Of a stretch of DNA of 64,000 nucleotides, positions 10,465 through 37,885 are shown one piece after another (the stretch's first letter is position 1; the number at the start of each line of letters is the position of its first letter). Origin of the DNA: an uncultured archaeon (GTDB lineage Archaea; Halobacteriota; Archaeoglobi; Archaeoglobales; Archaeoglobaceae); NCBI GenBank assembly GCA_964655455.1, contig CAZZMN010000006.1, forward strand, positions 36,951 through 100,950, read 5' to 3'. A program made the translations under genes and the position numbers. The notes beneath the pieces are model-generated. The model made no database searches. It had not been told where the DNA came from and saw nothing but the letters and a program-made list of their open reading frames with translations.

Positions 10465-11247
10465 ATGGATTTGGGGGATTTCTTAAAAAAATACTTCATA
10501 AATTCCATAATCTATAAGGAAGGATATAATATCGTCAATACACTGACTTTCGCTGTTATTCTCGTCGTAGTAGCGTATCTAATCTACAAGTATCTCAGCA
10601 AAAGGATTGACTTCGACTTAAAGTTTGCTGTTAGCACATTCCCTTATATTCTTTTTGGATCTTCTCTTAGAATTGTTGAAGATGCTGACTTTATCCAGCC
10701 ACCTTTGTCTTATCTTTTAATGACGCCACTGATTTACGTGGTTGTATTTACGATCACAATATCCTCTCTGATTTTTTCGCTTAAATTTTGCCGTAAATGT
10801 TATCCATACATCGGAGTTGCCCTATCGATATCTGTTCTCGGATATCTTTTTCTAAATTTGAATGTAGAAAATTGGTGGGTTTTTCCCGCAGCAATTTCAA
10901 TCTCTTCGATAGTTCTGCTGGTATATCATTACTTTTCCGATAAATTTAGGGCAGATGAATATAGCAAAGCCGTTCTTTTCGCTCAGTTGATGGATGGATC
11001 AACAAGCTTTATAGGAATGCAGTTCTTGGGCTATTGGGAACTTCACGTTATCCCCCGTTATCTTGTTTCAGTAACGGGTGCTTGGGTTATGGTATTGGTC
11101 AAGGTAATCGTTATAGTTCCCGTTCTGTTCGTCCTCGACTCAAGCAAAGAGGATATAAAGTTAATCAGATTTATAAAGTTCGTTCTGTTTACTTTGGGTT
11201 TCGCTCCGGGATTGAGAAACGGATTGAGAATGACCTTTGGGGTGTAA
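10465..11247 (+). CDS. polytopic membrane protein (DUF63-like)
   Basis: 260 aa with multiple hydrophobic helices. The N-terminal YKEGYNIVNTLTFAVIL recalls archaeal DUF63, from memory only. Confidence 0.45.
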   Translation: MDLGDFLKKYFINSIIYKEGYNIVNTLTFAVILVVVAYLIYKYLSKRIDFDLKFAVSTFPYILFGSSLRIVEDADFIQPPLSYLLMTPLIYVVVFTITISSLIFSLKFCRKCYPYIGVALSISVLGYLFLNLNVENWWVFPAAISISSIVLLVYHYFSDKFRADEYSKAVLFAQLMDGSTSFIGMQFLGYWELHVIPRYLVSVTGAWVMVLVKVIVIVPVLFVLDSSKEDIKLIRFIKFVLFTLGFAPGLRNGLRMTFGV

Positions 11248-11820: not shown

Positions 11821-12597
11821 ATGCTTGAAAAAAAGCTACAAAACCTTAAGGAATTCGTAAAAGATAAGGGTAAAAACGGTGCCTTAATTGCCTTCTCAGG
11901 AGGACTCGACAGCACAACTCTTGCGGTAATCTGCAAAGATTTAATTGATGTGAAACTCGCCACTATTGTTTCAGATATCTTTCCCGCATCGGAAATTGAA
12001 GAAGCCTCGAAAATTGCAAAAAAACTCGGACTGGAGCACATCAAAATCGAATTGGATTTGCTTTCAGATGAAAACTTCATCAGAAATCCTGTGGATAGGT
12101 GCTATTACTGTAAGAAAATGATGATCAAACGGTTAAAGGAATTCAATCGCGTGATATTCGAGGGAACAAATGTAAGCGATTTAAAAAAGCACAGACCGGG
12201 ATACAAAGCACTGCTTGAGGAGGAAAACGTCTACAGCCCATGGGTTGAGGCTAAGATCACAAAGGATGAGATAATTCAGATAGCGAAGTCGTTGGGATTG
12301 CCAATAAAGTCACCCTCCCCATGTCTTGCCACAAGAATTCCGTTCAACGAAAGGATAACGCGGGAAAAGCTCAAGAGAATAGAAAAAGCAGAAAACATAA
12401 TCAAAGATATTTCGGGTGTTAAGATCCTCAGGGTTAGAGATCACGGAGATTTGGCGAGAATAGAGGTGGGAAAAGAAGAAAGAAAATTACTATGCGATAC
12501 AAAGATCATGGACGAGATATTAAGGGAACTAAAGGCTCTCGGATACAAGTACGTCACTTTGGATCTGGAAGGATACAGAGAGGGAAGCCTGCTATGA
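11821..12597 (+). CDS. LarE-type PP-loop ATP-dependent sulfur transferase family protein (TIGR00268-like)
   Basis: PP-loop AFSGGLDST, plus CYYCK, PSPCLATRIP and RVRDHGDLARIEV, as in the LarE family. Three Cys fit the Fe-S-dependent subtype. The stop overlaps the nifB-like start (ATGA). Confidence 0.75.
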   Translation: MLEKKLQNLKEFVKDKGKNGALIAFSGGLDSTTLAVICKDLIDVKLATIVSDIFPASEIEEASKIAKKLGLEHIKIELDLLSDENFIRNPVDRCYYCKKMMIKRLKEFNRVIFEGTNVSDLKKHRPGYKALLEEENVYSPWVEAKITKDEIIQIAKSLGLPIKSPSPCLATRIPFNERITREKLKRIEKAENIIKDISGVKILRVRDHGDLARIEVGKEERKLLCDTKIMDEILRELKALGYKYVTLDLEGYREGSLL

Positions 12598-13382
12598 TCG
12601 AGTATCATCCATGTTTTACAAAAAACGATTTTGGAAGGCTACACCTTCCGGTGGCACCAAAGTGCAATATCAGGTGCAATTACTGTTCGAGGGGCATTAC
12701 AGAAGATCACAGACCGGGAGCCTATGATTTTGTTCTGAAGCCGAAAGATGCTGTTAACGTTGCGAAAATTGTTCTAAAGACACGAAGTGATATAAAAGTA
12801 GTAGGCATAGCTGGACCGGGTGAGCCGCTCTACAATAGGGAGACTTTTGAAACCCTTTTATTACTGCCGGATAACGTGATCAAGTGCTTATGCACGAACG
12901 GATTGTTGCTACCGCGCTACATCCAGGATCTCAGAGATCTCGGTTTAAGATTTTTGACAATCACAATCAATTCAATCGATGCCGATGTAGCCGCCAAAAT
13001 CTACGAGTTCGTGGAGTTCGAAGGAAAAAGATTCGAGGGAGTTGATGCTGCTGAACTCCTCGTTAACAACCAGTTTAGGGGTCTTAAGCTTGCGTCAAGA
13101 TTTACTTTTGTAAAGGTTAATACTGTTCTGATACCGGGAGTAAACGAGGAGCACATAGTCGAAATAGCCAAAAAAATAAGACATTATGCTGTGGTTCAAA
13201 ATATAATCCCCTTGATCCCCTGTTACAGATTTTCGAGAATCAAACAACCAAGCGTTGAATTACTTAGAGAAGTTAGGGAGAGATGTGCCAAATACATCCC
13301 ACAGATTTACCACTGTGCAACGTGCAGAGCAGACTCCGTTGGAAAAATATGTGAAAGAAAGAAGCTATCTCAGTTCCTTTAA
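12594..13382 (+). CDS. nifB: NifB-type radical SAM protein (no NifX domain)
   Basis: [43 protein letters not shown] and C-terminal [11 protein letters not shown] together make the NifB signature set. The ATG at 12594 is preferred over the long upstream ORF start at 12492. Confidence 0.85.
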
Positions 13383-14144
13383 TTCATTTAATGTCAAAAC
13401 CCTTGGTATTTCAAGATCTCTGTTTTTCCATATATTCTCGGCAAGTTTTCTAAAAATTTTGGCGGTCTCGCTTTTGGGGAAAAATTCTATAACAGTCTTG
13501 CCATTCAATTCGCTCAGGTGAACGTCTCTGCTCCTCGGTATAAAGCCAATGAGCTTGCTTCCAATCCTTTTGGCGAACTCTTCGACTATCTCTCTTTCTC
13601 TTTCAACTTCCCTTGAATTGCAGATTATTCCGCCCAATCTTGCTCCCACCCGCTTTATAGCTTTGCAAATGTTGTTTGCGGCAAATAGAGATAGATACTC
13701 GCCCGAAGTGACTATATACACTTCTCTAGCAAATCCCCGACGCATTGGGACTGCAAATCCTCCACAAACAACATCTCCCGGAACATCGTAGATAATCATG
13801 TCGAGCTTCAAATCGAAAACACCTAACTCCTCTAAGGTTCTAAAAGCTAAGAGCAAGCCTCTACCGGCACATCCGATACCTGGTTCCGGGCCACCTATTT
13901 CAACACAGAGAACGCCGTTAAATCCTTCGTGAACTACTTCTTCGAACTTGACATTCTCTTCTTCCATGATTACCTCTAAGAGGGGTTTTAATTGTCTCTT
14001 AACGAGATTTATTGTTGAGTCTCTTTTTGGATCACATCCAATCAACAAAACTTTTTTCCCCATTTCCGAGAGTGCCGCAGCTACATTTGATGCGATTGTC
14101 GATTTGCCTATCCCTCCCTTTCCGTATATCGCTATTTGCCTGAT
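13365..14144 (-). CDS. nflH: NifH-like Fe protein (nitrogenase-like, Nfl type); start codon anomalous
   Basis: GIGCAGRG and [16 protein letters not shown] supply the two 4Fe-4S Cys. The P-loop [15 protein letters not shown] is in frame upstream of the first ATG (14063). There is no ATG/GTG/TTG between the in-frame TGA (14168-14166) and that ATG. ATC at 14144 sits exactly where the Met of [11 protein letters not shown] is expected. Confidence 0.75.
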
Positions 14145-15322
14145 GGTATCACCCTTGCGATTTTTTCAGCAAGATTTACCGCTCCCTTGTAACACATTGT
14201 GAGCTGGTCTGAATGCATAACGTCACATATCGGGACTCCAAGTTCCAAACTGAAGGATTTTTCATACATTCCTCCGATGATTAGATCGGGTTTCAGATCT
14301 CTTACTGCGTTCAGAACTTCGCTATATTCCGGTTCCTTTAGGATTATGGGGCTTAATCCGAGCTCTTTAGAAGCTTTATTTAGCCTTTTGAGGGTTTCCT
14401 CACCGAGCCGATCTATAGAAACGAGAACCGGTATCATTCCGAGTTCATCAACAAACCTCAGTAGGGGTACTGCTCTGCTCGCGCCGCTGATTATGCAGAC
14501 CCTTTTTCCCTCTAATTTTTTTCTGAATTCTTTAATTTTTTCTTTTGCTGTTCTTTCTTTTTCTTTTAGATTACTTGGGTTTATCCTAAAGAATTCTGAA
14601 ATGCTCTCGAAGAACTCCGTCGTGCATGAGATTCCGATGGGTAAGGGAGGGACAATATACGGCTGATCGAATCTTTTTTCCATAAATCTTGCAGCATCCA
14701 AACCGCTTGCCTCGCACATTACTACATTCAGCATGGCTTTAGATGCTCTTTTTATCTCATATAGCTTTGTTTTTGCAGTTAGAATCGAATTCACATTTAT
14801 TCCCATCTCGGATAAGATTCCGAGTGTTTCCTTTAAATCCAAACCGTATCTGTAAACGGCTAAGAGATTCACACATCTATCTTCCTTTTCATTATCTTCA
14901 ACGAGCTCTAGAACCTTCTTTAATGCCTCTCTGTATCCATCGATCTGATCACCCTCAAATCCGCCTGAGTGGATTGCTATAAGTTCCGCATTCACGTTAT
15001 CTCTCATTTTCCTAACAATTAAGTCCACATCCTCTCCGATTATGCTACTCGCGCATGCTGTTAAAACTGCTATTAGGTTTGGAGAAATCCTTTCGTCAAT
15101 ATCTTTTATTGCTTTTTTCAGCTTTGCTTCTCCGCCGAATATTACTTCCCTTTCACCCATATTTGTTGTGAATATTCTTCTAACTTTTGCACCTCTGGCA
15201 GTTAACAGATATCTGAGATTGTAGGCACATCCGATCGGACTGTGTATTAAAGCGATGGCATCTGATATTCCTAAGATTACTCTTACCGCACCAAAGAGTT
15301 TACAGGTTTTGTAAGGTTCCAC
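14132..15322 (-). CDS. nflD: NifD/NifE-like nitrogenase component-1 family protein (single subunit)
   Basis: 396 aa with [23 protein letters not shown]...[27 protein letters not shown] and KPDLIIGG...DVMHSDQ. These align by eye along the whole of A. vinelandii NifD. Confidence 0.8.
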
Positions 15323-15428: not shown

Positions 15429-16391
15429 ATGCTCATTTCTACGGGATCGTATCTTCCCGACAGGATTGTCCCCAACTCTTATTTTGAGGACATTCTTGAG
15501 ACGAGTGATAAATGGATACAAGAGAAACTTGGAATCAAATTTAGGAGATTCCTGAGAGAAGACCAGACTACATCGGATCTCGCTGCATTAGCTGCTTTGA
15601 ACTGTCTTAGCAAAACCGATACAAAACCTTCTGATGTTGATATGATCGTGCTAGCTACAACAACTCCAGACATGATCGCTCCATCCACGGCATGTATAAC
15701 GCAAGCAAAATTGGGCGCAAAAAACGCCTGCGCTTTTGATGTCATGAATTTTTGTTCTGGATTCAATTACGCCTTCGCCATTGCAACTCGGTTGATTGGA
15801 TTCGAGGCTAAAAATGCTCTTGTCATAGGTGCGGAAGCTTACTCAAGATTTTTAGATTTCTCTGATCGAAAAACATGCGTAATTTTTGGAGATGGAGCTG
15901 GAGCGGTTTTTTTAAAAAAGAGGAAAGCTAACGGGTTTTTCTTTCATTATCTTAAAAGTGACGGGAACGGATGGAATATACTTCAAATTCCCGGCGGTGG
16001 TGCTAAATACCCTGCAAGTTACGAAACAATCTGCAAAAAAATGCACGTATTCAAAATGGACGGTAAAGGTGTATGGGAGTTCGCCACAAAAATTATACCA
16101 AAAGAGATTTTAAAAGCTTTTAAACTTGCGAAGGTTGATCTAAAAGATTGTGATTTTTACATATTCCACCAAGCAAATCTGAGGATTATCAGAGAAATCA
16201 TGAAAGTTCTTAAAATTCCCGAATATAAAACACACACAACGATAGAGAAGTATGGGAACACCGCATGCGCGTCAATTCCTATTACGCTGAATGATGCAAT
16301 AGAAAAAGGGATGATTAAAAAAGGTGATTTGGTAGCATTAGTTGGTTTCGGCGGTGGACTTGCGTGGGGGATAAATATTTTCGAATATTAA
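15429..16391 (+). CDS. fabH: bacterial-type 3-oxoacyl-ACP synthase III (FabH/KAS III family)
   Basis: The Cys-His-Asn triad is in canonical contexts: AFDVMNFCSGFNYA, FHQANLRII and YGNTACASIP, plus C-terminal GFGGGLAWG. Confidence 0.8.
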   Translation: MLISTGSYLPDRIVPNSYFEDILETSDKWIQEKLGIKFRRFLREDQTTSDLAALAALNCLSKTDTKPSDVDMIVLATTTPDMIAPSTACITQAKLGAKNACAFDVMNFCSGFNYAFAIATRLIGFEAKNALVIGAEAYSRFLDFSDRKTCVIFGDGAGAVFLKKRKANGFFFHYLKSDGNGWNILQIPGGGAKYPASYETICKKMHVFKMDGKGVWEFATKIIPKEILKAFKLAKVDLKDCDFYIFHQANLRIIREIMKVLKIPEYKTHTTIEKYGNTACASIPITLNDAIEKGMIKKGDLVALVGFGGGLAWGINIFEY

Positions 16392-16988: not shown

Positions 16989-17945
16989 GTGGAGTCGAGA
17001 AAACTTCAACTGATTGGTGGATCGAGCTACATGATTAGTCTGCCGAAAAATTGGGTAAGGAAAAATGAGCTAGATCAGGGAGATGAAATTCTTCTGGATA
17101 TTAGTGACGAAGTAATAAAGATAATCCCGAAGAAGCTCACAGAAAAACATCGAATTGTTAGAGCTGTTGTCGACAACATCCCCAAATATGACGAGAGCTT
17201 TTTTAGAAGATTCATAATAGCTTTATACATTCAGGGTTTAGACGAAATAATCTTACAGGATAAGCTGCTATCTCCAAAGATCGTGGAGATTATCAGCAGC
17301 ATCGCCCGCGAAATAATCGGGATGGAGGTTATCGACGCAAGCGATGGAAAAGTGGTTTTAAGAAGCTTAACCACCGCTGAATTTGATGTAGAGGGTGTTC
17401 TTCGGAGAATGTCCCAAATAATCTCCGGAATGATGAATTCAATAGTCGATTACATAAGAATAAATGACAAAAACAGTCTCAAAGAGATACCAAAACACGA
17501 AGAAGATATCGACAGACTCTACTTCTTAGCAGTTAGGCTCGAAAATAGAAGGATTCGAGATTTAATGTCCCCATCAAAATGGAGCGAAATGAGACATATA
17601 CTGGGGATGAGAATTACGGCAAAAATTCTTGAAGAGCTTGCCGATGCCCTTATAGATTTTTCAGAGAACCTCTATTCTCACGAGAATTACAATGCAGATG
17701 AATACGCAGGGACACTCTCCTTAGTGAACAATGTGTTCAATAAAGTAATGGTTGCTTATCTGAATTCAGATTTAGTGAAGGCAAACGAAGCAATAGACAT
17801 GGTTGATGAGCTCGAAAACAAGTTGTTGTCAAAGCTTGAAGAAAAAGATGCCTCACTAATTTATCCACTCGTTGATATATGCAGAAGAATTAAGGGGATT
17901 GGTGAAATAGCCATAAACAGGTCAGTTAGAGAGATGATAACTTAA
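16989..17945 (+). CDS. AbrB/SpoVT-domain + PhoU-domain regulator (archaeal PhoU homologue)
   Basis: GTG start. The N-terminal LIGGSSYMISLPKNWVRKNELDQGDEI is an AbrB-like swapped hairpin. Two PhoU-like helical repeats follow. Confidence 0.7.
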   Translation: MESRKLQLIGGSSYMISLPKNWVRKNELDQGDEILLDISDEVIKIIPKKLTEKHRIVRAVVDNIPKYDESFFRRFIIALYIQGLDEIILQDKLLSPKIVEIISSIAREIIGMEVIDASDGKVVLRSLTTAEFDVEGVLRRMSQIISGMMNSIVDYIRINDKNSLKEIPKHEEDIDRLYFLAVRLENRRIRDLMSPSKWSEMRHILGMRITAKILEELADALIDFSENLYSHENYNADEYAGTLSLVNNVFNKVMVAYLNSDLVKANEAIDMVDELENKLLSKLEEKDASLIYPLVDICRRIKGIGEIAINRSVREMIT

Positions 17946-19157
17946 CTTTTTTATCTTTTCATAAAGCTTGGGCAGGAAAAGTCCAACATCCGTTACGATG
18001 CCGATTGCCTGATGGGATCCTCTGTCAACGAGTTTTGTCACGACGGATGGATTAGTATCTACACATATTGTTTTGACTGTAGATGGGAGCAGATTTCCCA
18101 CCGCTATGCTGTGTAGCATTGTCGCAAGCATTATCACCATATCTATGCCTTTTAAAGCTTTTTTCATCTCTTTCTTTGCTTCCATTGTATCTGTTATTAC
18201 TTCCGGAAGGGGCCCGTCATCTCTTATCGAACCTGCAAGGATAAATGGAATGTTGTTCCTTACGCATTCAAACATTATTCCGTTCTTTATGAGACCAGAT
18301 TCAACGGCTTTTTTAATGCCACCAGCGGCAATCACCTTGCTTATTGTATGGATATGATGTCGGTTTCCACCAGGAACGGGTCTACCAGTTTTTATATCCA
18401 TTCCTAAAGATGTACCAAACAATGCAATTTCGATATCGTGAACAGCTAATGCGTTCCCTGAGAGAAGGAGATCAACAAACCCATCTCTTATTAACCCGGC
18501 AAGGGCATCTCTTGCACCTGTATGGTTAACGGCTGGTCCCGCTACAACGGCTATTTTGCCACCTCTTCTTTTCAAGTCTACGATCTCTCTTGCAATCGCT
18601 TCTATGACGTTTTCAGTCGGTCTTTCGGTAGATATAGTCCCTCCCATGAACTCAAAGGTCGTTGATTTTCGCGGTCTTTCCGGCGGTATGACTCGGACAC
18701 CCTTTTCTCCAACAACTATCAGATCTCCCTTTTTCACTTCATTTAGGAATTTGCAGAACGCTCTTTTCTCCTTTGGATCCACCACGATGACTCTGTCCAT
18801 GCTGATATCTTCGACCATTATCCATTCTCCGTTGAGTCTGATAAACGTTGGATTATTTGTCGTCACGTAGAAATTTTCAGGCAAAACTCTATCCGCTGGA
18901 GCCTCTCTTAATTCAACATCTTCCACATACGGGATACGGGCGCCAAGCTTGTGGAGCTCCTTCAGAATCTTGTCTAAATGAGCCTCATCCTTTCCGAAAA
19001 CGATCATTCTGGCGTAGCTTGTGTCTTCTTTCCTTTTTCCAATTCTGAATTCGGTTATCTCAAACTCACCCTCAAGATCGAGGATTAGGTCCAAAACTTT
19101 CGGAAGGATGTTCGAATCGATGAGATGACCTTCGAATTCTACTTCTCTTGCGATCAT
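17922..19157 (-). CDS. TIGR00300 / LOR-SDH N-terminal domain family protein (archaeal ornithine cyclodeaminase-type annotation)
   Basis: 411 aa. The N-terminus EFEGHLIDSNILPKVLDLILD and a Rossmann-like region AVVAGPAVNHTGA match the family from memory only. Confidence 0.5.
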   Translation of the reverse strand: MIAREVEFEGHLIDSNILPKVLDLILDLEGEFEITEFRIGKRKEDTSYARMIVFGKDEAHLDKILKELHKLGARIPYVEDVELREAPADRVLPENFYVTTNNPTFIRLNGEWIMVEDISMDRVIVVDPKEKRAFCKFLNEVKKGDLIVVGEKGVRVIPPERPRKSTTFEFMGGTISTERPTENVIEAIAREIVDLKRRGGKIAVVAGPAVNHTGARDALAGLIRDGFVDLLLSGNALAVHDIEIALFGTSLGMDIKTGRPVPGGNRHHIHTISKVIAAGGIKKAVESGLIKNGIMFECVRNNIPFILAGSIRDDGPLPEVITDTMEAKKEMKKALKGIDMVIMLATMLHSIAVGNLLPSTVKTICVDTNPSVVTKLVDRGSHQAIGIVTDVGLFLPKLYEKIKKLSYHLSN

Positions 19158-33301: not shown

Positions 33302-36300
33302 ATGGAGCTGAGCGAAACTGCAAAGGTTGTTTTGGAGAAGAGATATCTGCTTAAAAATGAGAGAGGGGAACCAATCGAGACCCCCGATGAAATGCTCTGG
33401 AGAGTTGCAAACGCCGTAGCACAGGCTGAGGAGAGCTACGGGGGTGACGTAAAGGAATGGACGAAAAAGTTCCACGACATAATGGATAGACAGGAGTTTA
33501 TGCCAAACTCTCCCACACTGATGAACGCTGGAACTCCTCTCGGACAGCTTTCCGCATGCTTCGTCATACCTGTCGATGACTCGATTGATGGAATATTTAA
33601 GGCTCTGTGGGACATGGCGAAGGTTCAGAAGAGCGGTGGCGGTTGTATCGACGGAAATGCGAGGATAATTTACTGGAATGACGAAGAGATACATATAGAG
33701 ACCTTAAAAGAAATGTATGAATCCTATAAATATTTCGGAGAGTTCTACGATCCCGAATATAACCGCTGGGGAATTGATGTTTGCGGAAAAGAGATATACG
33801 TCAGATCATTTGATCTCACTAAGGGAGAAGTAGCTAAAGGAAGGGTAACCCATTTATGGAAATACGAGCTTGATGAAAGTGTTGCGAAGTACGAAATAAC
33901 AACAAATAAGGGAACAAAAATCCTCACGTCACCTTGGCATCCGTTTTTCGTTTTTACAGAGGATATGGAAATCAAAACCAAAAGGGCTGACGAAATAGAA
34001 AGTGGAGACATGATTATCTCTGCAATTCCTCAAAATCTCAGAAGTTTTATAGAAGACTGCTGGATCACTGGATTTATTGCTGGAGACGGTTGCATGGAGT
34101 TTATAAACAAAAAAACAAGATACACATGCAATCGACTTAAAAACTACACGCTTCTTCTTGAGAAGAAATACAGCAAAAAATTCGCCTATCAGGAAGATAG
34201 AAAAATGCTAAACAGAATCGAAAAGGGTATTCCAAAAGAAATCCTGAGAAAAGGAGATAATGCAGTTCTGTCCTTCATAGCGGGAATATTCGATGCAAAG
34301 GGTCATGTCAGCTCAAAACCGGGGATCGAAATATGTGTGAAAAATAAAGCTCTGATAGAGGATATCGTGTACTACCTTAATTCGCTTGGAATTAAGGCAA
34401 GAATCAGAAAAAAGAAGAAAAAAGATGGCGTCGATTATGTAATAAACATTGAAGAATACACAGCATTGTTGATATTCTACTCGCTGATTGGAAAGCATCT
34501 GCGTAATACAGAGAAAAGAAGAAAGCTTGAAGAAATAATCGAACATCGTAAGGGTGGATCGTTCGGACTAGATATAAGCTTTGAAGCATTTAAGAAATGG
34601 GCTGAAAAATTTAACGTTAGATTTAAAACAAACGGTAGTCAAACTCTCGCTGTCTTAGAGAGCGAGGTGTTTTCGTTAGGACAGTGGCATAAAAGGGGAA
34701 AAGTTTCCAAAGCTAAGCTTGTGAAATTCCTGACAAGGCTGTCAAATCATACGGAAAGCGAAGAGATTTTCAAGCTTCTGGGAATTATAATCAGTCTAGA
34801 AGTCGTAAAAAATGTTAAGAAGACGTATGAAAGAAAGACATTTTACGATCTTACAGTTGAGAATTACCAGAATTATCTTGCAGGAGAAAACGGCTTAGTA
34901 TTTGTCCATAATACCGGTTTTAGTTTCTCTCGCTTAAGACCCAAAGGAGATATTGTAAGATCAACGATGGGAGTTGCTTCGGGTCCCGTTTCGTTTATGA
35001 AGATTTTCGATGCGGCAACAGAACAGATAAAGCAGGGTGGCAAAAGAAGAGGAGCAAACATGGGAGTTCTAAACGTCCACCATCCCGATATAGAAGAATT
35101 CATCACAGCAAAGTGGGAAGAAGGTGTGCTGAGAAACTTTAACATCAGTGTTGCCGTCACTGACAAGTTTATGGAGGCTCTATTAAGGGACGACGAATAC
35201 GAACTGATAAATCCGAGAACGGGCAAAGTCGTCAAAAAAGTCAAATCGAGGAAAATTTTCAACCTCATAGTTGAGGGAGCTTGGAGGAACGGGGAACCGG
35301 GATTGATTTTCATCGACGAGATTAACAGGCACAATCCAACACCTCACCTCGGAGAAATAGAGGCAACAAATCCTTGTTTGACCGCCGACACGTGGATAAT
35401 GACTTCAGAAGGGGCAAGACAGGTCAAAGACCTTATAGGAAGAAAATTCACAGCAGTTATCAACGGAAAACGATACGATAGCGATGTAATTGGATTCTTC
35501 TTCACCGGAGTCAGGAAGGTGTTAAAGCTGAAAACAAAAGAGGGTTTCGAAGTCAGGTTAACCGAAGATCACCCGGTGCTAAAAGCTAAGAAAATCATGA
35601 GGCATGCAATTGGAACAGAGTGGTGCAAGGCTGGAGAGCTCAAAAAAGGTGATAAGGTCGTGCTAAACAACCATCGAGGCTTAAGCTGGGGTGGAGATTA
35701 CAGCGAGGAAGAGGGTTATCTTATCGGACTCTTGCTCGGAGATGGAACGATCAGGGAGAGACCCATGCTCTCGTCTTGGGGTAAAAGTGTCGGAGCTAAG
35801 TCTGTTAGAAAGACCGCATACAGTTATGCATTAAAGCTACCGCATCGTAGTGGATGGATCAGGGTTAAAGGTAGAAACGAATACAGGATGTCAATAGCGT
35901 ACTTGAAGAAATTAGCTACAGAACTCGGGCTCAGGATAGGTGAAAAGAAGATTACAGAAAAGATGGAAAAAGCTTCATCAGACTTCTATATCGGTCTTTT
36001 GCGAGGGTTGTTCGACGCAGACGGTACTGTAGTCGGTGACCATAAGAAAGGTGTAAGCGTCAGACTTACTCAGAGCGACTTAGAATTCCTGAAAGCTGTT
36101 CAGAGAATGTTGCTTAGGCTTGGAATCCTTTCGAAGATTTACCACAGACAAAAAGCGGGCAAAAGCTTGTTATCAGATGGAAAGGGAGAAAATGAGCTTG
36201 TGATCTCAAACGACAGCGTTGTCGAGTTCTACGAGAGAATCGGATTCAACGATATCGAAAAGATGGAGAAGCTTAGAAAGGTGATAGAAATCTACAAGAG

Positions 36301-37885
36301 ACATCCGAATAGTGACAGATTCGTTGCAACTGTTGATGAGGTAATCCCGGATGGAATAGAGGACGTTTACGATGTCAGAATCCCCTACATAAACGCATTC
36401 GACGCAAACGGCTTTGTTGTGCACAACTGCGGTGAACAGCCTCTCCTCCCCTACGAATCCTGTAATCTTGGATCAATCAACCTTGCAAGGTTTGTTAATG
36501 AAAAGAAGAAAGATTTCGATTGGGATAGGCTTAGGGAAGTCGTCTGGATAGCAACAAGATTCCTCGACGATGTCATAGATGTCAACGCGTATCCGATACC
36601 GGAGATAGAGGAAATGACTAAAAAGACAAGGAAAATCGGCCTCGGCGTAATGGGGTGGGCAGACGCCCTTTTCAAGCTCGGAATTCCCTATGACAGCGAA
36701 GAAGCACTCAAGCTTGCCGAAAAAGTTATGAAATTCATTCAAGAGGAGAGCCACAAAGCCTCTCAGAATCTCGCAGAGGAAAGGGGAGTCTTTCCAGCAT
36801 GGAAAGGAAGCGTTTGGGAGAAGAAAGGGATAAAGATGAGAAACGCTACAACAACGACGATAGCACCGACTGGCACGATAAGCATCATAGCGGGATGTAG
36901 CAGCGGCATAGAACCAGTCTTCGCCTTAGCATATAAAAGGAAAAACATCCTTGATGGAGAAGAATTTTTCGAGGTAAATAAGGTATTCGAGCAGAAACTG
37001 AAAGAACTTGGACTGTTCACAGACGAAATTCTAAGTAAAGTCGTTGAGGAGGGCTCCATCCAGAGCATCGAGGAGATTCCAAAGGATGTTAGAAGGGTTT
37101 TCAAATGTGCGTTGGATATTGCCCCTGAATGGCATGTCAGAATGCAGGCGGCTTTTCAGAAATGGACAGACAATGCCGTAAGTAAGACGATTAATCTGCC
37201 AAATCACGCAACCAAGGCGGATGTCGAAAAAGCTTTTCTCCTTGCATACGAGCTCAAATGTAAAGGAATAACAGTTTACAGAGACGGAAGTCGTGAGGAA
37301 CAAGTATTAGCGATAAAGAAGACTGAGAGGAAGAAAGAAGAGGAGAAGATCAGACCTCCGGCGAGATATCACAAACCAAGACCTCGCCCGAAGATAACAA
37401 GAGGTGTTACAATAGAAACAAAAACTGGATGCGGATCTCTATACGTCACGATAAACGAAGACGATGAAGGGATCGCCGAGGTCTTCGTTCAGCTCGGAAA
37501 GAGCGGGGGTTGTGCAGCCTCTCAGACCGAAGCTATTGGTCGACTGCTCAGCATCGCTTTAAGGAGCTGGGTAGACCCAGAATCTCTGATAAAACAGCTC
37601 AAGGGTATAAGATGCCCATCTATCGGATTTGATAACGGTGAAATCATTACGAGTTGTGCTGACGGTGTTGCAAAAGCTTTGGAAAAGCATCTAAAGGGAG
37701 AATACAAGAAAATAAAGCTTGACGTGAAAGGTGTCAAGCCGTTGACGGAATTTGTCAAGGAGACAGAGGAAGAGAAAACCAAAACAAAAATGATCGGAGG
37801 CGTCTGTCCGGAGTGCGGGAATGTCCTTGAATACGGAGAGGGGTGCGCGACGTGTAGATTCTGCGGATTCACGAAATGTGGCTAA
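33302..37885 (+). CDS. nrdJ: class II (adenosylcobalamin-type) ribonucleotide reductase, interrupted by two inteins
   Basis: Extein motifs are FMPNSPTLMNAG, QKSGGG|TGFSFSRLRPKGD, ATNP|CGEQPLLPYESCNLGSINL and a C-terminal CPECG...CATCRFCG zinc ribbon. The total is 1527 aa; removing the two inteins leaves 753 aa. Confidence 0.9.
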   Translation: MELSETAKVVLEKRYLLKNERGEPIETPDEMLWRVANAVAQAEESYGGDVKEWTKKFHDIMDRQEFMPNSPTLMNAGTPLGQLSACFVIPVDDSIDGIFKALWDMAKVQKSGGGCIDGNARIIYWNDEEIHIETLKEMYESYKYFGEFYDPEYNRWGIDVCGKEIYVRSFDLTKGEVAKGRVTHLWKYELDESVAKYEITTNKGTKILTSPWHPFFVFTEDMEIKTKRADEIESGDMIISAIPQNLRSFIEDCWITGFIAGDGCMEFINKKTRYTCNRLKNYTLLLEKKYSKKFAYQEDRKMLNRIEKGIPKEILRKGDNAVLSFIAGIFDAKGHVSSKPGIEICVKNKALIEDIVYYLNSLGIKARIRKKKKKDGVDYVINIEEYTALLIFYSLIGKHLRNTEKRRKLEEIIEHRKGGSFGLDISFEAFKKWAEKFNVRFKTNGSQTLAVLESEVFSLGQWHKRGKVSKAKLVKFLTRLSNHTESEEIFKLLGIIISLEVVKNVKKTYERKTFYDLTVENYQNYLAGENGLVFVHNTGFSFSRLRPKGDIVRSTMGVASGPVSFMKIFDAATEQIKQGGKRRGANMGVLNVHHPDIEEFITAKWEEGVLRNFNISVAVTDKFMEALLRDDEYELINPRTGKVVKKVKSRKIFNLIVEGAWRNGEPGLIFIDEINRHNPTPHLGEIEATNPCLTADTWIMTSEGARQVKDLIGRKFTAVINGKRYDSDVIGFFFTGVRKVLKLKTKEGFEVRLTEDHPVLKAKKIMRHAIGTEWCKAGELKKGDKVVLNNHRGLSWGGDYSEEEGYLIGLLLGDGTIRERPMLSSWGKSVGAKSVRKTAYSYALKLPHRSGWIRVKGRNEYRMSIAYLKKLATELGLRIGEKKITEKMEKASSDFYIGLLRGLFDADGTVVGDHKKGVSVRLTQSDLEFLKAVQRMLLRLGILSKIYHRQKAGKSLLSDGKGENELVISNDSVVEFYERIGFNDIEKMEKLRKVIEIYKRHPNSDRFVATVDEVIPDGIEDVYDVRIPYINAFDANGFVVHNCGEQPLLPYESCNLGSINLARFVNEKKKDFDWDRLREVVWIATRFLDDVIDVNAYPIPEIEEMTKKTRKIGLGVMGWADALFKLGIPYDSEEALKLAEKVMKFIQEESHKASQNLAEERGVFPAWKGSVWEKKGIKMRNATTTTIAPTGTISIIAGCSSGIEPVFALAYKRKNILDGEEFFEVNKVFEQKLKELGLFTDEILSKVVEEGSIQSIEEIPKDVRRVFKCALDIAPEWHVRMQAAFQKWTDNAVSKTINLPNHATKADVEKAFLLAYELKCKGITVYRDGSREEQVLAIKKTERKKEEEKIRPPARYHKPRPRPKITRGVTIETKTGCGSLYVTINEDDEGIAEVFVQLGKSGGCAASQTEAIGRLLSIALRSWVDPESLIKQLKGIRCPSIGFDNGEIITSCADGVAKALEKHLKGEYKKIKLDVKGVKPLTEFVKETEEEKTKTKMIGGVCPECGNVLEYGEGCATCRFCGFTKCG
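33644..34912 (+). mobile_element. intein 1 (423 aa) with LAGLIDADG homing endonuclease domain
   Basis: It starts CIDGNARI right after KSGGG and ends VFVHN before the +1 Thr of TGFSFSRLRP. The LAGLIDADG blocks are WITGFIAGDGCM and LSFIAGIFDAKGHV. Confidence 0.85.
35375..36427 (+). mobile_element. intein 2 (351 aa) with LAGLIDADG homing endonuclease domain
   Basis: It starts CLTADTWIM after ATNP and ends FVVHN before the +1 Cys of CGEQPL. The LAGLIDADG blocks are GYLIGLLLGDGTI and IGLLRGLFDADGTV. Confidence 0.85.

Follow-up and report, generated by a model that had tools for sequence, protein, structure and literature searches.

A compact nflD-nflH-nifB gene set in an uncultured Archaeoglobaceae archaeon encodes an apparently undescribed, probably one-subunit relative of nitrogenase

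A stretch of 64,000 nucleotides (nt) from an uncultured archaeon of the Archaeoglobaceae (GenBank assembly GCA_964655455.1, contig CAZZMN010000006.1, positions 36,951 to 100,950 of the forward strand; the whole stretch is referred to here as the window) was found to carry three genes, nflD, nflH and nifB, which together look like an apparently undescribed, probably one-subunit relative of nitrogenase. We regard it as an even call that these genes form a self-contained nitrogenase-like reductase system, in which NflD would probably be homodimeric, dependent on NifB and driven by ATP. An initial annotation of the stretch, read from the letters alone, had described a NifD-like gene of 396 codons and a NifH-like gene that converge on a NifB-type gene, and this arrangement was borne out (Oxidored_nitro, 338 bits; Fer4_NifH, 323 bits; the convergent nifB and nflH overlap at their 3' ends by 18 nt, 13365-13382, with nflH lying downstream of nflD on the minus strand). 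It had also proposed a homomeric D-type protein fed by NifB, which is a reasonable reading because no K/N-type gene stands beside nflD in any of the 83 loci compared below.

NflD contains a full Oxidored_nitro domain, yet it scores below the cut-offs of all curated families. The best match among the NCBIfam hidden Markov models (HMMs) was NifE (TIGR01283, 222 bits, cut-off 505), and lower scores were obtained with the alpha-subunit subfamily model (186 bits, cut-off 486), with NifD (TIGR01282, 151 bits, cut-off 654) and with CfbD (TIGR03282, 80 bits, cut-off 268), the last of which aligned only to residues 23-147, the N-terminal third of the protein; a genuine CfbD, from locus L055, scores 509 on this model. 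The curated cut-offs, together with the defining residues or partners, rule out that NflD is CfbD, NifD or NifE. From NifE it is set apart by the lack of a NifN-type gene, by Met369/His370 where NifE has Asn and by an N-terminus that is approximately 35 residues shorter, and from NifD by Tyr130 in the column of His195 and by the lack of a K-type open reading frame (ORF) in the window or beside nflD in the 83 loci. Mar and Isr enzymes are D2K2 complexes with adjacent D and K genes, while no K gene accompanies nflD and MarD (9fmg_A) matched its product at 129 bits.

A word-indexed search returned approximately 80 clusters of relatives at 34-100% identity, after which the scores of near-full-length matches dropped from 229 to 139 bits. 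Similarly, an exhaustive profile search of 1.8 billion representatives returned about eight representatives (clustered at 50% identity) at 399 bits or more; the next match, at 319 bits, lacks the His, and below it lies a continuum of other Nif-like proteins. Given this gap in scores, and since the nearest outgroups lack the D-x-M-H motif described below, NflD is, as judged by these searches, a discrete family with members of approximately 390-430 amino acids (aa). Its hosts are Archaeoglobi, Baldrarchaeota and an Odinarchaeota-labelled metagenome-assembled genome (MAG; the latter two are Asgard archaea), Hydrothermarchaeota, Methanobacteriaceae including Methanothermobacter and many Methanomicrobiales (Methanoregula, Methanolinea, Methanoculleus and Methanospirillum), with at least one named isolate among them, Methanoculleus nereidis YWC-01 (L055). 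The module had been called an orphan, a label that needs qualifying, since lone genes of the NflD family are widespread in Methanobacteriaceae and Methanomicrobiales.

The residues that would bind metal clusters are strongly conserved. In an alignment of 39 family members, with identities down to 34%, C32, C90, C203, R283, D367-x-M369 and H370 are invariant, while C7 is nearly so, being missing only from one truncated sequence. Ligand positions were compared by phmmer, by profile hmmsearch and by MAFFT L-INS-i with Clostridium butyricum NifD, NifE and NifK, and in every alignment made C7, C32, C90 and C203 correspond to NifD Cys62, Cys88, Cys154 and Cys275 and to NifE Cys37, Cys62, Cys124 and Cys250. 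Of the five ligand matches to NifD that had been drawn by eye, these four are therefore unambiguous, whereas the register of the fifth, His370 against NifD His442, is ambiguous by one residue (442 or 443). HMMER places His370 opposite His442 by way of a one-residue gap (9p1x in both searches, 9spz in the profile search only), while the single-sequence alignment to 9spz puts Met369 opposite that His and His370 at 443, and the MAFFT L-INS-i and NifE alignments likewise put Met369 at 442 and His370 at 443. Relative to the upstream GVP/GG anchors, His370 lies one residue past His442, while relative to the Y/F-x-G anchor downstream the two line up; the fifth match is therefore defensible without being established. 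The invariant Tyr130 stands in the column of NifD His195, and the pocket is therefore not a nitrogenase active site; the residue at the Gln191 position is not conserved. Both the register of His370 and this Tyr qualify the earlier statement that all NifD cluster-ligand positions are kept. Additionally, the invariant Arg283 aligns with the arginine of the GGSR motif in NifD 9p1x, where NifE has Lys, an arginine that we take to be Arg359 of A. vinelandii NifD.

The closest relatives of NflD, by sequence and by fold, are NifE and NifEN. Among sequences of known structure it matched NifEN at 249 bits and NifD at 172 bits, and an AlphaFold2 model (predicted local distance difference test score, pLDDT, 90.2) was matched best by Foldseek to the L-cluster-bound holo-NifEN 9onk_A (template modelling score, TM, 0.89/0.83; root-mean-square deviation 2.5 Å), with TM scores of 0.84-0.88 against NifD and NifK. 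These best HMM, sequence and fold matches (222 bits, 249 bits and TM 0.89) favour the alternative that NflD is a scaffold or carrier of the NifEN kind, which would take up the cluster made by NifB, possibly process it with NflH and pass it on; in methanogens the acceptors could be the McrC/Mmp7 complex that activates methyl-coenzyme M reductase (MCR). C. butyricum NifE shares the Tyr at the position of NifD His195, the neighbourhood of cfb and methanogenesis-marker-9 (Mmp9) genes in Methanomicrobiaceae (see below) suits a theme of MCR maturation, and methanogens need L-type clusters for MCR activation, the trafficking route of which is unknown (PMC12176620, PMC13474568). Conversely, the triad of nflD, nflH and nifB is kept in Archaeoglobi and Asgard loci that show no mcr or cfb genes, and no named or titled match to NflD came from Methanococcales or Methanosarcinales. 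Furthermore, NflD begins six residues before its first Cys, with profile position 10 aligning to NifE residue 44, and it therefore lacks the N-terminal segment of approximately 35 residues of NifE, which we take to be the carrier of the surface L-cluster site, and it has Arg, as NifD does, at the GGSR arginine position where NifE has Lys. A carrier function is thus considered unlikely.

A partner subunit was sought in the window with phmmer, using C. butyricum NifD, NifK, NifE and NifN-B, CfbD and NflD as queries against all six-frame ORFs, and nflD was the sole match. The window contains one Oxidored_nitro ORF only and no homologue of NifK, NifN, NifE, NifV, CfbB or CfbE, in agreement with the initial annotation, which had listed no K/N/E partner, nifV or nifEN and had judged the remainder to be of Archaeoglobus type. 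The comparison was extended to 80 loci from species-representative genomes and to loci on metagenome contigs (83 in the counts), the six-frame ORFs of which were searched with the window proteins. Apart from CfbD in Methanomicrobiaceae, no second Oxidored_nitro gene, and no K/N-type gene at all, lies beside nflD in the 83 loci. nflD, nflH and nifB are always adjacent in Archaeoglobi (L006-L009, L049, L091 and L093; NflD identity 57-92%), in Baldrarchaeota (L010 and L090) and in the Odinarchaeota-labelled genome (L011). In the Asgard loci and in L049 all three share a strand, in the order D>H>B, while nifB is convergent in the others, and since the strand arrangement varies, the linkage has been kept across rearrangements. 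Unbiased clustering of the ORFs within 7 kb of nflD in the 83 loci identified no partner common across lineages except DUF63/AliA, while the neighbours that recur within particular lineages were LeuA, a response regulator, Alba, an AIR-synthase-like, an ARMT1-like and an ABC ATPase protein. Across phyla, the D-H-B set is the sole association of nflD that was found to persist.

In approximately 70 methanogen loci nflD stands alone, with neither nflH nor nifB within 10 kb; methanogens carry NifB elsewhere in the genome, where it appears to be essential (PMC12176620, PMC13474568). The adjacency is tight exactly in those loci that show no mcr or cfb genes and thus offer no other obvious reason for retaining NifB and a CfbC-like protein, while nflD is free-standing in methanogens, which have both for other purposes, and this pattern argues that NflD needs an Fe protein and the product of NifB.

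By its motifs and alignments the nifB product is a genuine archaeal NifB of the NifX-less type. It matched the NifB of Methanocaldococcus infernus (6Y1X) at 254 bits and 47% identity and that of M. thermautotrophicus (7BI7) at 212 bits, and is 47-52% identical to the methanogen proteins named NifB by the Prokaryotic Genome Annotation Pipeline (PGAP). Alignment to both structures showed that it keeps the CxxxCxxC motif of radical S-adenosylmethionine enzymes, the K1 Cys residues of the HPC and C(L/I)STNGL motifs, and, for K2, the His of RxHxPVAP together with the C-terminal C-x9-C-x2-C triad. The ligands in M. acetivorans NifB are Cys30, Cys63 and Cys129 and residues 264, 274 and 277, Cys63 being a ligand of the K1 cluster (PMC6053413). 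Among the NifB proteins of the window and of L006, L007, L009, L010, L011 and L049, those of the window, L006, L007 and L049 have the equivalent of Cys63 deleted, and each of these four has a second Cys in its CLCTNGL motif. The Asgard NifB proteins keep a Cys63-like Cys and have a single Cys in that motif, while one Archaeoglobales NifB has both. Since loss of Cys63 tracks the extra Cys, this suggests that the K1 ligand has been relocated rather than the cluster lost. Production of an [8Fe-9S-C] cluster by this NifB is predicted from similarity.

NflH falls between the CfbC and NifH models, closer to CfbC (NF033200, 389 bits, cut-off 402; NifH TIGR01287, 354 bits, cut-off 394). It matched M. 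acetivorans NifH (6nzj) at 293 bits, and the Walker A motif (GKGGIGKS), switch I (DPKRDST), switch II and both [4Fe-4S] Cys residues (equivalents of Cys97 and Cys132, in GCAGRG and VVCGGF) align with NifH 6nzj and 1cp2, the alignments beginning at residue 1. Among named proteins, those nearest to it are the CfbC proteins of Methanobacteriales, at 56-58% identity, and the Baldrarchaeia orthologue (66%) is called CfbC by PGAP. Of the pair, NflD is not CfbD (80 against 268 bits on the CfbD model), and NflH is closest to CfbC.

The start of nflH is not canonical. In mechanical ORF finding, as in all public gene calls, the product is a truncated protein of 232 aa that begins past the Walker A loop, and no ATG, GTG or TTG occurs between the upstream in-frame stop and the P-loop, either in the window or in the Archaeoglobi orthologues (L006-L009, L049 and L091). 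A full-length NflH requires the ATC at 14144-14142, while the nflD stop TAG lies at 14134-14132. In every Archaeoglobi nflH, down to 57% NflD identity, GG(A)GGTGAT-N3-ATC (ATT in one) is followed by (R/K)-(Q/K)-IAIYGKGG; in the Asgard orthologues this place is taken by ATG or GTG. The nflD-nflH junction is identical across four independent assemblies, and 25 of the 28 codons that precede the first nflH ATG encode the same amino acid as in the 75% relative (L007) despite 19 nucleotide changes. On the strength of this conserved Shine-Dalgarno-N3-ATC/ATT arrangement, the identical junction, the protein conservation ahead of the ATG and a ratio of nonsynonymous to synonymous substitution rates (dN/dS) of 0.07, nflH appears to start at AUC or AUU, overlapping the last 13 nt of nflD. 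Two other explanations were rejected. A programmed -1 frameshift yielding an NflD-NflH fusion would suit the -1 frame of nflH, while no slippery heptamer is present and the junction differs between lineages; a sequencing error is contradicted by the four concordant assemblies and by retention of the feature in all Archaeoglobi orthologues. Approximately 18 protein clusters of the clade are called at 215-242 aa, nflH being shortened by 17-44 residues with loss of the ATP-binding loop, and the mis-annotation is therefore systematic; surveys that use public gene calls will misjudge these genes, as their P-loop has been cut off.

The absence of a canonical start codon, and the resulting truncation by gene callers, might be taken to mean that nflH is a pseudogene and that the genes are decaying remnants of an ancestral nif or cfb system, as might the occurrence of nflD in two frames in the JdFR-27 MAG (L049). 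Against this, dN/dS relative to the 92% relative is 0.08 for nflD, 0.07 for nflH and 0.11 for nifB; these three genes are under strong purifying selection, which rules them out as pseudogenes. Furthermore, the P-loop region before the first ATG is conserved as protein through many synonymous changes, the Shine-Dalgarno sequence and ATC/ATT start persist down to 57% NflD identity, and the catalytic motifs are all intact, so that decay is scarcely credible. All four genes, larE, nifB, nflH and nflD, are real. In Archaeoglobus sp. JdFR-27 (L049, 1325-2525) the nflD sequence falls into two ORFs that overlap and lie in different frames, owing to a frameshift or an assembly error, while nflH and nifB are intact.

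Taking the observed genes, family limits, conserved residues, synteny and purifying selection as a basis, we infer a homodimer of NflD, its clusters and the flow of its electrons along the following lines. NifB would build a carbide-containing [8Fe-9S-C] (L-type) cluster, which would be passed to NflD, most likely a homodimer as it has no K/N-type partner. The three N-terminal Cys residues of each monomer, six in the dimer, would coordinate a bridging cluster, of the P type or [4Fe-4S], where the two subunits meet, while the pair formed by Cys203 and His370 of D-x-M-His, aided by Arg283, would hold the NifB-made cluster in the pocket that accommodates FeMo-co in NifD. The CfbC-like NflH would then supply electrons singly at the expense of ATP, and in methanogens the lone NflD would presumably borrow the CfbC or NifH and the NifB of the cell. 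A NifB-derived cluster at Cys203/His370 is favoured since the nitrogenase-like enzymes that use [4Fe-4S] clusters only (DPOR, COR, CfbCD and group VI) are not accompanied by NifB and do not have the Cys275/His442 pair, while Mar uses a NifB homologue and contains P- and L-like clusters (PMC13474568). The proteins nearest to NflD in sequence and fold, NifEN (249 bits, TM 0.89) and NifD (172 bits), are likewise members that bind such clusters. It is unlikely that NflD is a nitrogenase that reduces N2, as Tyr occupies the His195 position, nifV, nifE and nifN are absent from the window, and there is no NifK.

Several findings weigh against such a system. The partner search covered the window and the loci, and a partner could lie elsewhere in the genome. 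NflH is CfbC-like, and NifB scores 248 bits on TIGR01290, below the cut-off of 344 (its match spans positions 9-278 of a model of 441), and lacks the Cys63 equivalent. The register of His370 is ambiguous, and position 443 is occupied by His in some NifE proteins too, namely C. butyricum NifE and the fused NifEN 9i0g. In the Hydrothermarchaeota-type loci L021, L023 and L092 (NflD identity 43-44%), neither nflH nor nifB occurs within 10 kb of nflD. Additionally, two kinds of surroundings hint at a role in tetrapyrrole metabolism. In nine Methanomicrobiaceae loci, of Methanoculleus and relatives (L055, 5264-11170, plus strand; L035, L038, L042, L050, L057, L059, L064 and L067), nflD follows cfbE-cfbD-cfbB-ilvE on the same strand, and in an Archaeoglobales MAG (L091, 8040-18654; 57% NflD identity) an aminotransferase-like gene and cbiB precede nflD-nflH on the same strand, with cbiX, a tetrapyrrole methylase gene, cbiD and cbiC approximately 5 kb further on, that is, in cobalamin biosynthesis surroundings.

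The same surroundings support an alternative in which NflD and NflH are a reductase of tetrapyrroles or cofactors of the CfbCD/DPOR kind, with an organic macrocycle in the cavity and a bridging [4Fe-4S] cluster only; Cys203 and His370 would then help to bind the substrate or take part in catalysis, and the linkage of NifB would have some other cause. In L091 CbiB is encoded upstream of nflD, and CbiX, CbiD, CbiC and tetrapyrrole methylases are encoded downstream of it, the proximity of NflH to CfbC (389 against 402 bits; 56-58% identity; the PGAP name of the Baldrarchaeia orthologue) points the same way, and CfbD is a precedent for a single-subunit enzyme (PMC12176620, PMC13474568). However, the cfb and cbi linkages each occur in one lineage only, with the housekeeping gene ilvE intervening in the former, and the neighbours of nflD include no tetrapyrrole gene in the window, the Asgard loci, Methanobacteriaceae or most Methanomicrobiales. 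Moreover, the known nitrogenase-like enzymes of tetrapyrrole metabolism have neither NifB nor a Cys275-type ligand, while linkage to NifB is the sole association of nflD found across phyla. A tetrapyrrole reductase is thus rather improbable. As separate observations, a methanogenesis-marker-9 gene lies divergently upstream of the cfb-nflD array in Methanomicrobiaceae, and the neighbours of nflD in L021, L023 and L092 are glutaredoxin/thioredoxin-like, ThiS/Urm1-like and ferredoxin-like genes.

Upstream of nifB the initial annotation had identified a LarE-type gene joined to it by an ATGA overlap, and both features hold (TIGR00268, 242 bits, cut-off 150; SGGLDS, CYYC and PCLATR are present; as read directly in the sequence, the larE TGA stop and the nifB ATG at 12594 share ATGA). 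The CXXC-C motif marks the [4Fe-4S]-dependent majority type of LarE (PMC9283937). Of the arrangement of LarE, NifB, NflD and NflH, the D-H-B part recurs in other Archaeoglobi, while larE adjoins nifB only in the window assemblies and in the 92% relative L006. It is absent from beside the module in the 75%, 57% and Asgard loci, and in the 75% relative cofC and a histone gene flank the module in its place. Coupling of LarE to the module and delivery of sulfur by it, which had also been proposed, were therefore not supported: this is an ordinary LarE with a likely nickel-pincer client nearby, namely an ornithine cyclodeaminase (TIGR00300) encoded 5.3 kb from larE. The nickel-pincer-dependent class of ornithine cyclodeaminases was itself found by using LarE as a genomic search anchor (PMC13524815). 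larB and larC do not occur in the 64-kb window.

On the simplest account, larE came to lie upstream of nifB in a single lineage, where the two genes are transcribed together but share no function, and LarE most likely serves a nickel-pincer cofactor pathway with the nearby cyclodeaminase as its client, so that LarE would be a neighbour recruited in one lineage, making the nickel-pincer cofactor for that enzyme. It is very unlikely that LarE is instead part of the module and a source of sulfur for NifB or NflD, such as the ninth sulfur of the cluster. The ATGA overlap does imply co-translation in the lineage of the window, LarE is a [4Fe-4S] sulfur transferase, and LarE or the cyclodeaminase is encoded 3-5 kb from nflD in three Methanoregulaceae loci (L062, L083 and L085). 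The adjacency of larE and nifB is nonetheless confined to the window and its 92% relative, the protein scores fully as a LarE equivalog and has a likely nickel-pincer-dependent client 5 kb off, and unrelated genes lie between LarE and nflD in L083; the link in the Methanoregulaceae loci, with unrelated genes in between, was rejected as coincidental.

The positions of the module genes and of the cyclodeaminase gene are collected in Table 1.

Table 1. Features of the nflD-nflH-nifB region, with positions counted from the first letter of the window
Feature	Position	Strand	Description
larE	11821-12597	+	PP-loop ATP-dependent sulfur transferase, [4Fe-4S] CXXC-C type; TIGR00268 242 bits
nifB	12594-13382	+	262 aa; NifX-less archaeal NifB-type radical S-adenosylmethionine protein; 254 bits to 6Y1X
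nflH	13365-14144	-	259 aa if the start is ATC 14144-14142; NifH/CfbC-type ATP-dependent Fe protein; Fer4_NifH 323 bits
nflH proposed translation start	14142-14153	-	Shine-Dalgarno-like GGTGAT, 3 nt, then ATC; within the last nflD codons
nflD	14132-15322	-	396 aa, GTG start; NifD/NifE-like catalytic-type subunit; Oxidored_nitro 338 bits
Nickel-pincer-nucleotide-dependent ornithine cyclodeaminase gene	17922-19157	-	TIGR00300 688 bits, cut-off 411; context, outside the module

The remainder of the 64-kb window is housekeeping sequence of Archaeoglobus type, including fwd (formylmethanofuran dehydrogenase), mch, sdh (succinate dehydrogenase), gatE and hemL/hemC. The species-representative genome closest to it is the Archaeoglobaceae MAG L006, with an NflD identity of 92%, and contigs of an 85 °C enrichment from Great Boiling Spring (JGI 3300000109), as well as several Logan assemblies, contain exact copies of proteins of the window. 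A FabH-type beta-ketoacyl synthase III, unusual in archaea, is encoded divergently from nflD (15429-16391, plus strand; NF006829, 352 bits, above the cut-off) and is not kept beside nflD in more distant relatives. A DUF63/AliA_AliB membrane protein gene (10465-11247, plus strand) lies approximately 3 kb from nflD, at a distance that recurs in 13 Methanobacteriaceae loci, for example L013 (6821-7618); its sharing with these distant archaea may be due to chance. At 33302-37885 (plus strand) the window encodes a B12-type ribonucleotide reductase of 1527 aa with two intein/LAGLIDADG homing-endonuclease insertions, and this exact product has no entry in the gene-position index. A scan for bacterial-type promoters and terminators gave numbers close to those for shuffled sequence (promoter-like, 7 against 7.9; terminator-like, 4 against 3.3) and is uninformative for an archaeon.

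The host is thus a hot-spring relative of Archaeoglobus that does not fix N2 and has no methane genes in the window, yet carries a compact D-H-B set, and NflD would explain the presence of NifB and a CfbC-like protein in archaea with neither nitrogenase nor MCR genes in the sequence examined. No description of a single-subunit, NifB-linked family was found in the literature searched, beyond which lie most subscription-journal papers, and the family may sit unremarked in large trees. CfbD has been described as the only, or the simplest, homomeric member of the nitrogenase family (PMC12176620; a structural paper of 2025 and a review of 2026, neither of which mentions such a group), while an earlier survey reported no nitrogenase-like alpha-type sequence with His442 (PMC3464626) and group IV nitrogenase-like sequences lack a residue of this type (PMC13474568). 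We tentatively entertain, at less than even chances, the fuller proposal that NflD, as a member of the nitrogenase family, forms homodimers from a single gene and carries a symmetric P-type cluster together with a carbide cluster made by NifB. If true, NflD would be a living example of the architecture postulated to precede subunit duplication, between CfbD-like homodimers and the NifDK and NifEN heterotetramers, and, besides nitrogenase, Mar and MCR activation, [8Fe-9S-C] clusters would have one more biological use, in archaea that do not fix N2 and do not make methane. A one-subunit family linked to NifB, which has the Cys275 equivalent and an invariant His at or beside 442, would provide a concrete protein with which to test the order in which subunit duplication and the use of complex clusters arose, and whose oligomeric state, cluster type and reactivity are all measurable; as it occurs in thermophiles, the family should yield stable proteins.

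Comparison with known systems places NflD closest to NifEN (A. vinelandii 3PDI, holo 9ONK and fused 9I0G), which is its best match by curated HMM, PDB sequence and fold and is similar in size. Both have three Cys residues in the N-terminal half for an interfacial cluster, a Cys at the position of NifE Cys250/NifD Cys275 and no His at the His195 position, and NifEN also works with a NifH-type protein and NifB. NflD differs in lacking a NifN-type partner gene and the NifE N-terminus of approximately 35 residues, in having Met-His in place of the Asn-(Gln/His) of NifE and, at the GGSR arginine position, Arg in place of its Lys, and in its score (222 against 505 bits); additionally, there is no NifDK for it to serve, and nflD lies outside any nif cluster. 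With NifDK, VnfDK and AnfDK it shares the equivalents of Cys62, Cys88, Cys154 and Cys275, an invariant His at or next to 442, Arg at the GGSR position, a NifH-type reductase and NifB, while it is a single subunit of 396 aa, compared to approximately 490 aa plus NifK (151 against 654 bits), with Tyr at the His195 position, an unconserved Gln191 position and no nifV, nifE or nifN. CfbCD resembles it in being archaeal and in consisting of one D-type and one H-type gene, with NflH closest to CfbC; methanogens with nflD also carry cfbCD, and in Methanomicrobiaceae nflD lies within the cfb cluster. In contrast, CfbD uses two Cys residues per monomer for its [4Fe-4S] cluster, has no pair of the Cys275/His442 type and does not need NifB. 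Finally, MarBHDK (methylthio-alkane reductase) and IsrBHDK likewise do not fix N2 and are encoded with a NifX-less NifB homologue, Mar having P- and L-like clusters, whereas they are bacterial D2K2 heterotetramers in sulfur-metabolism neighbourhoods, with a match between MarD and NflD of 129 bits.

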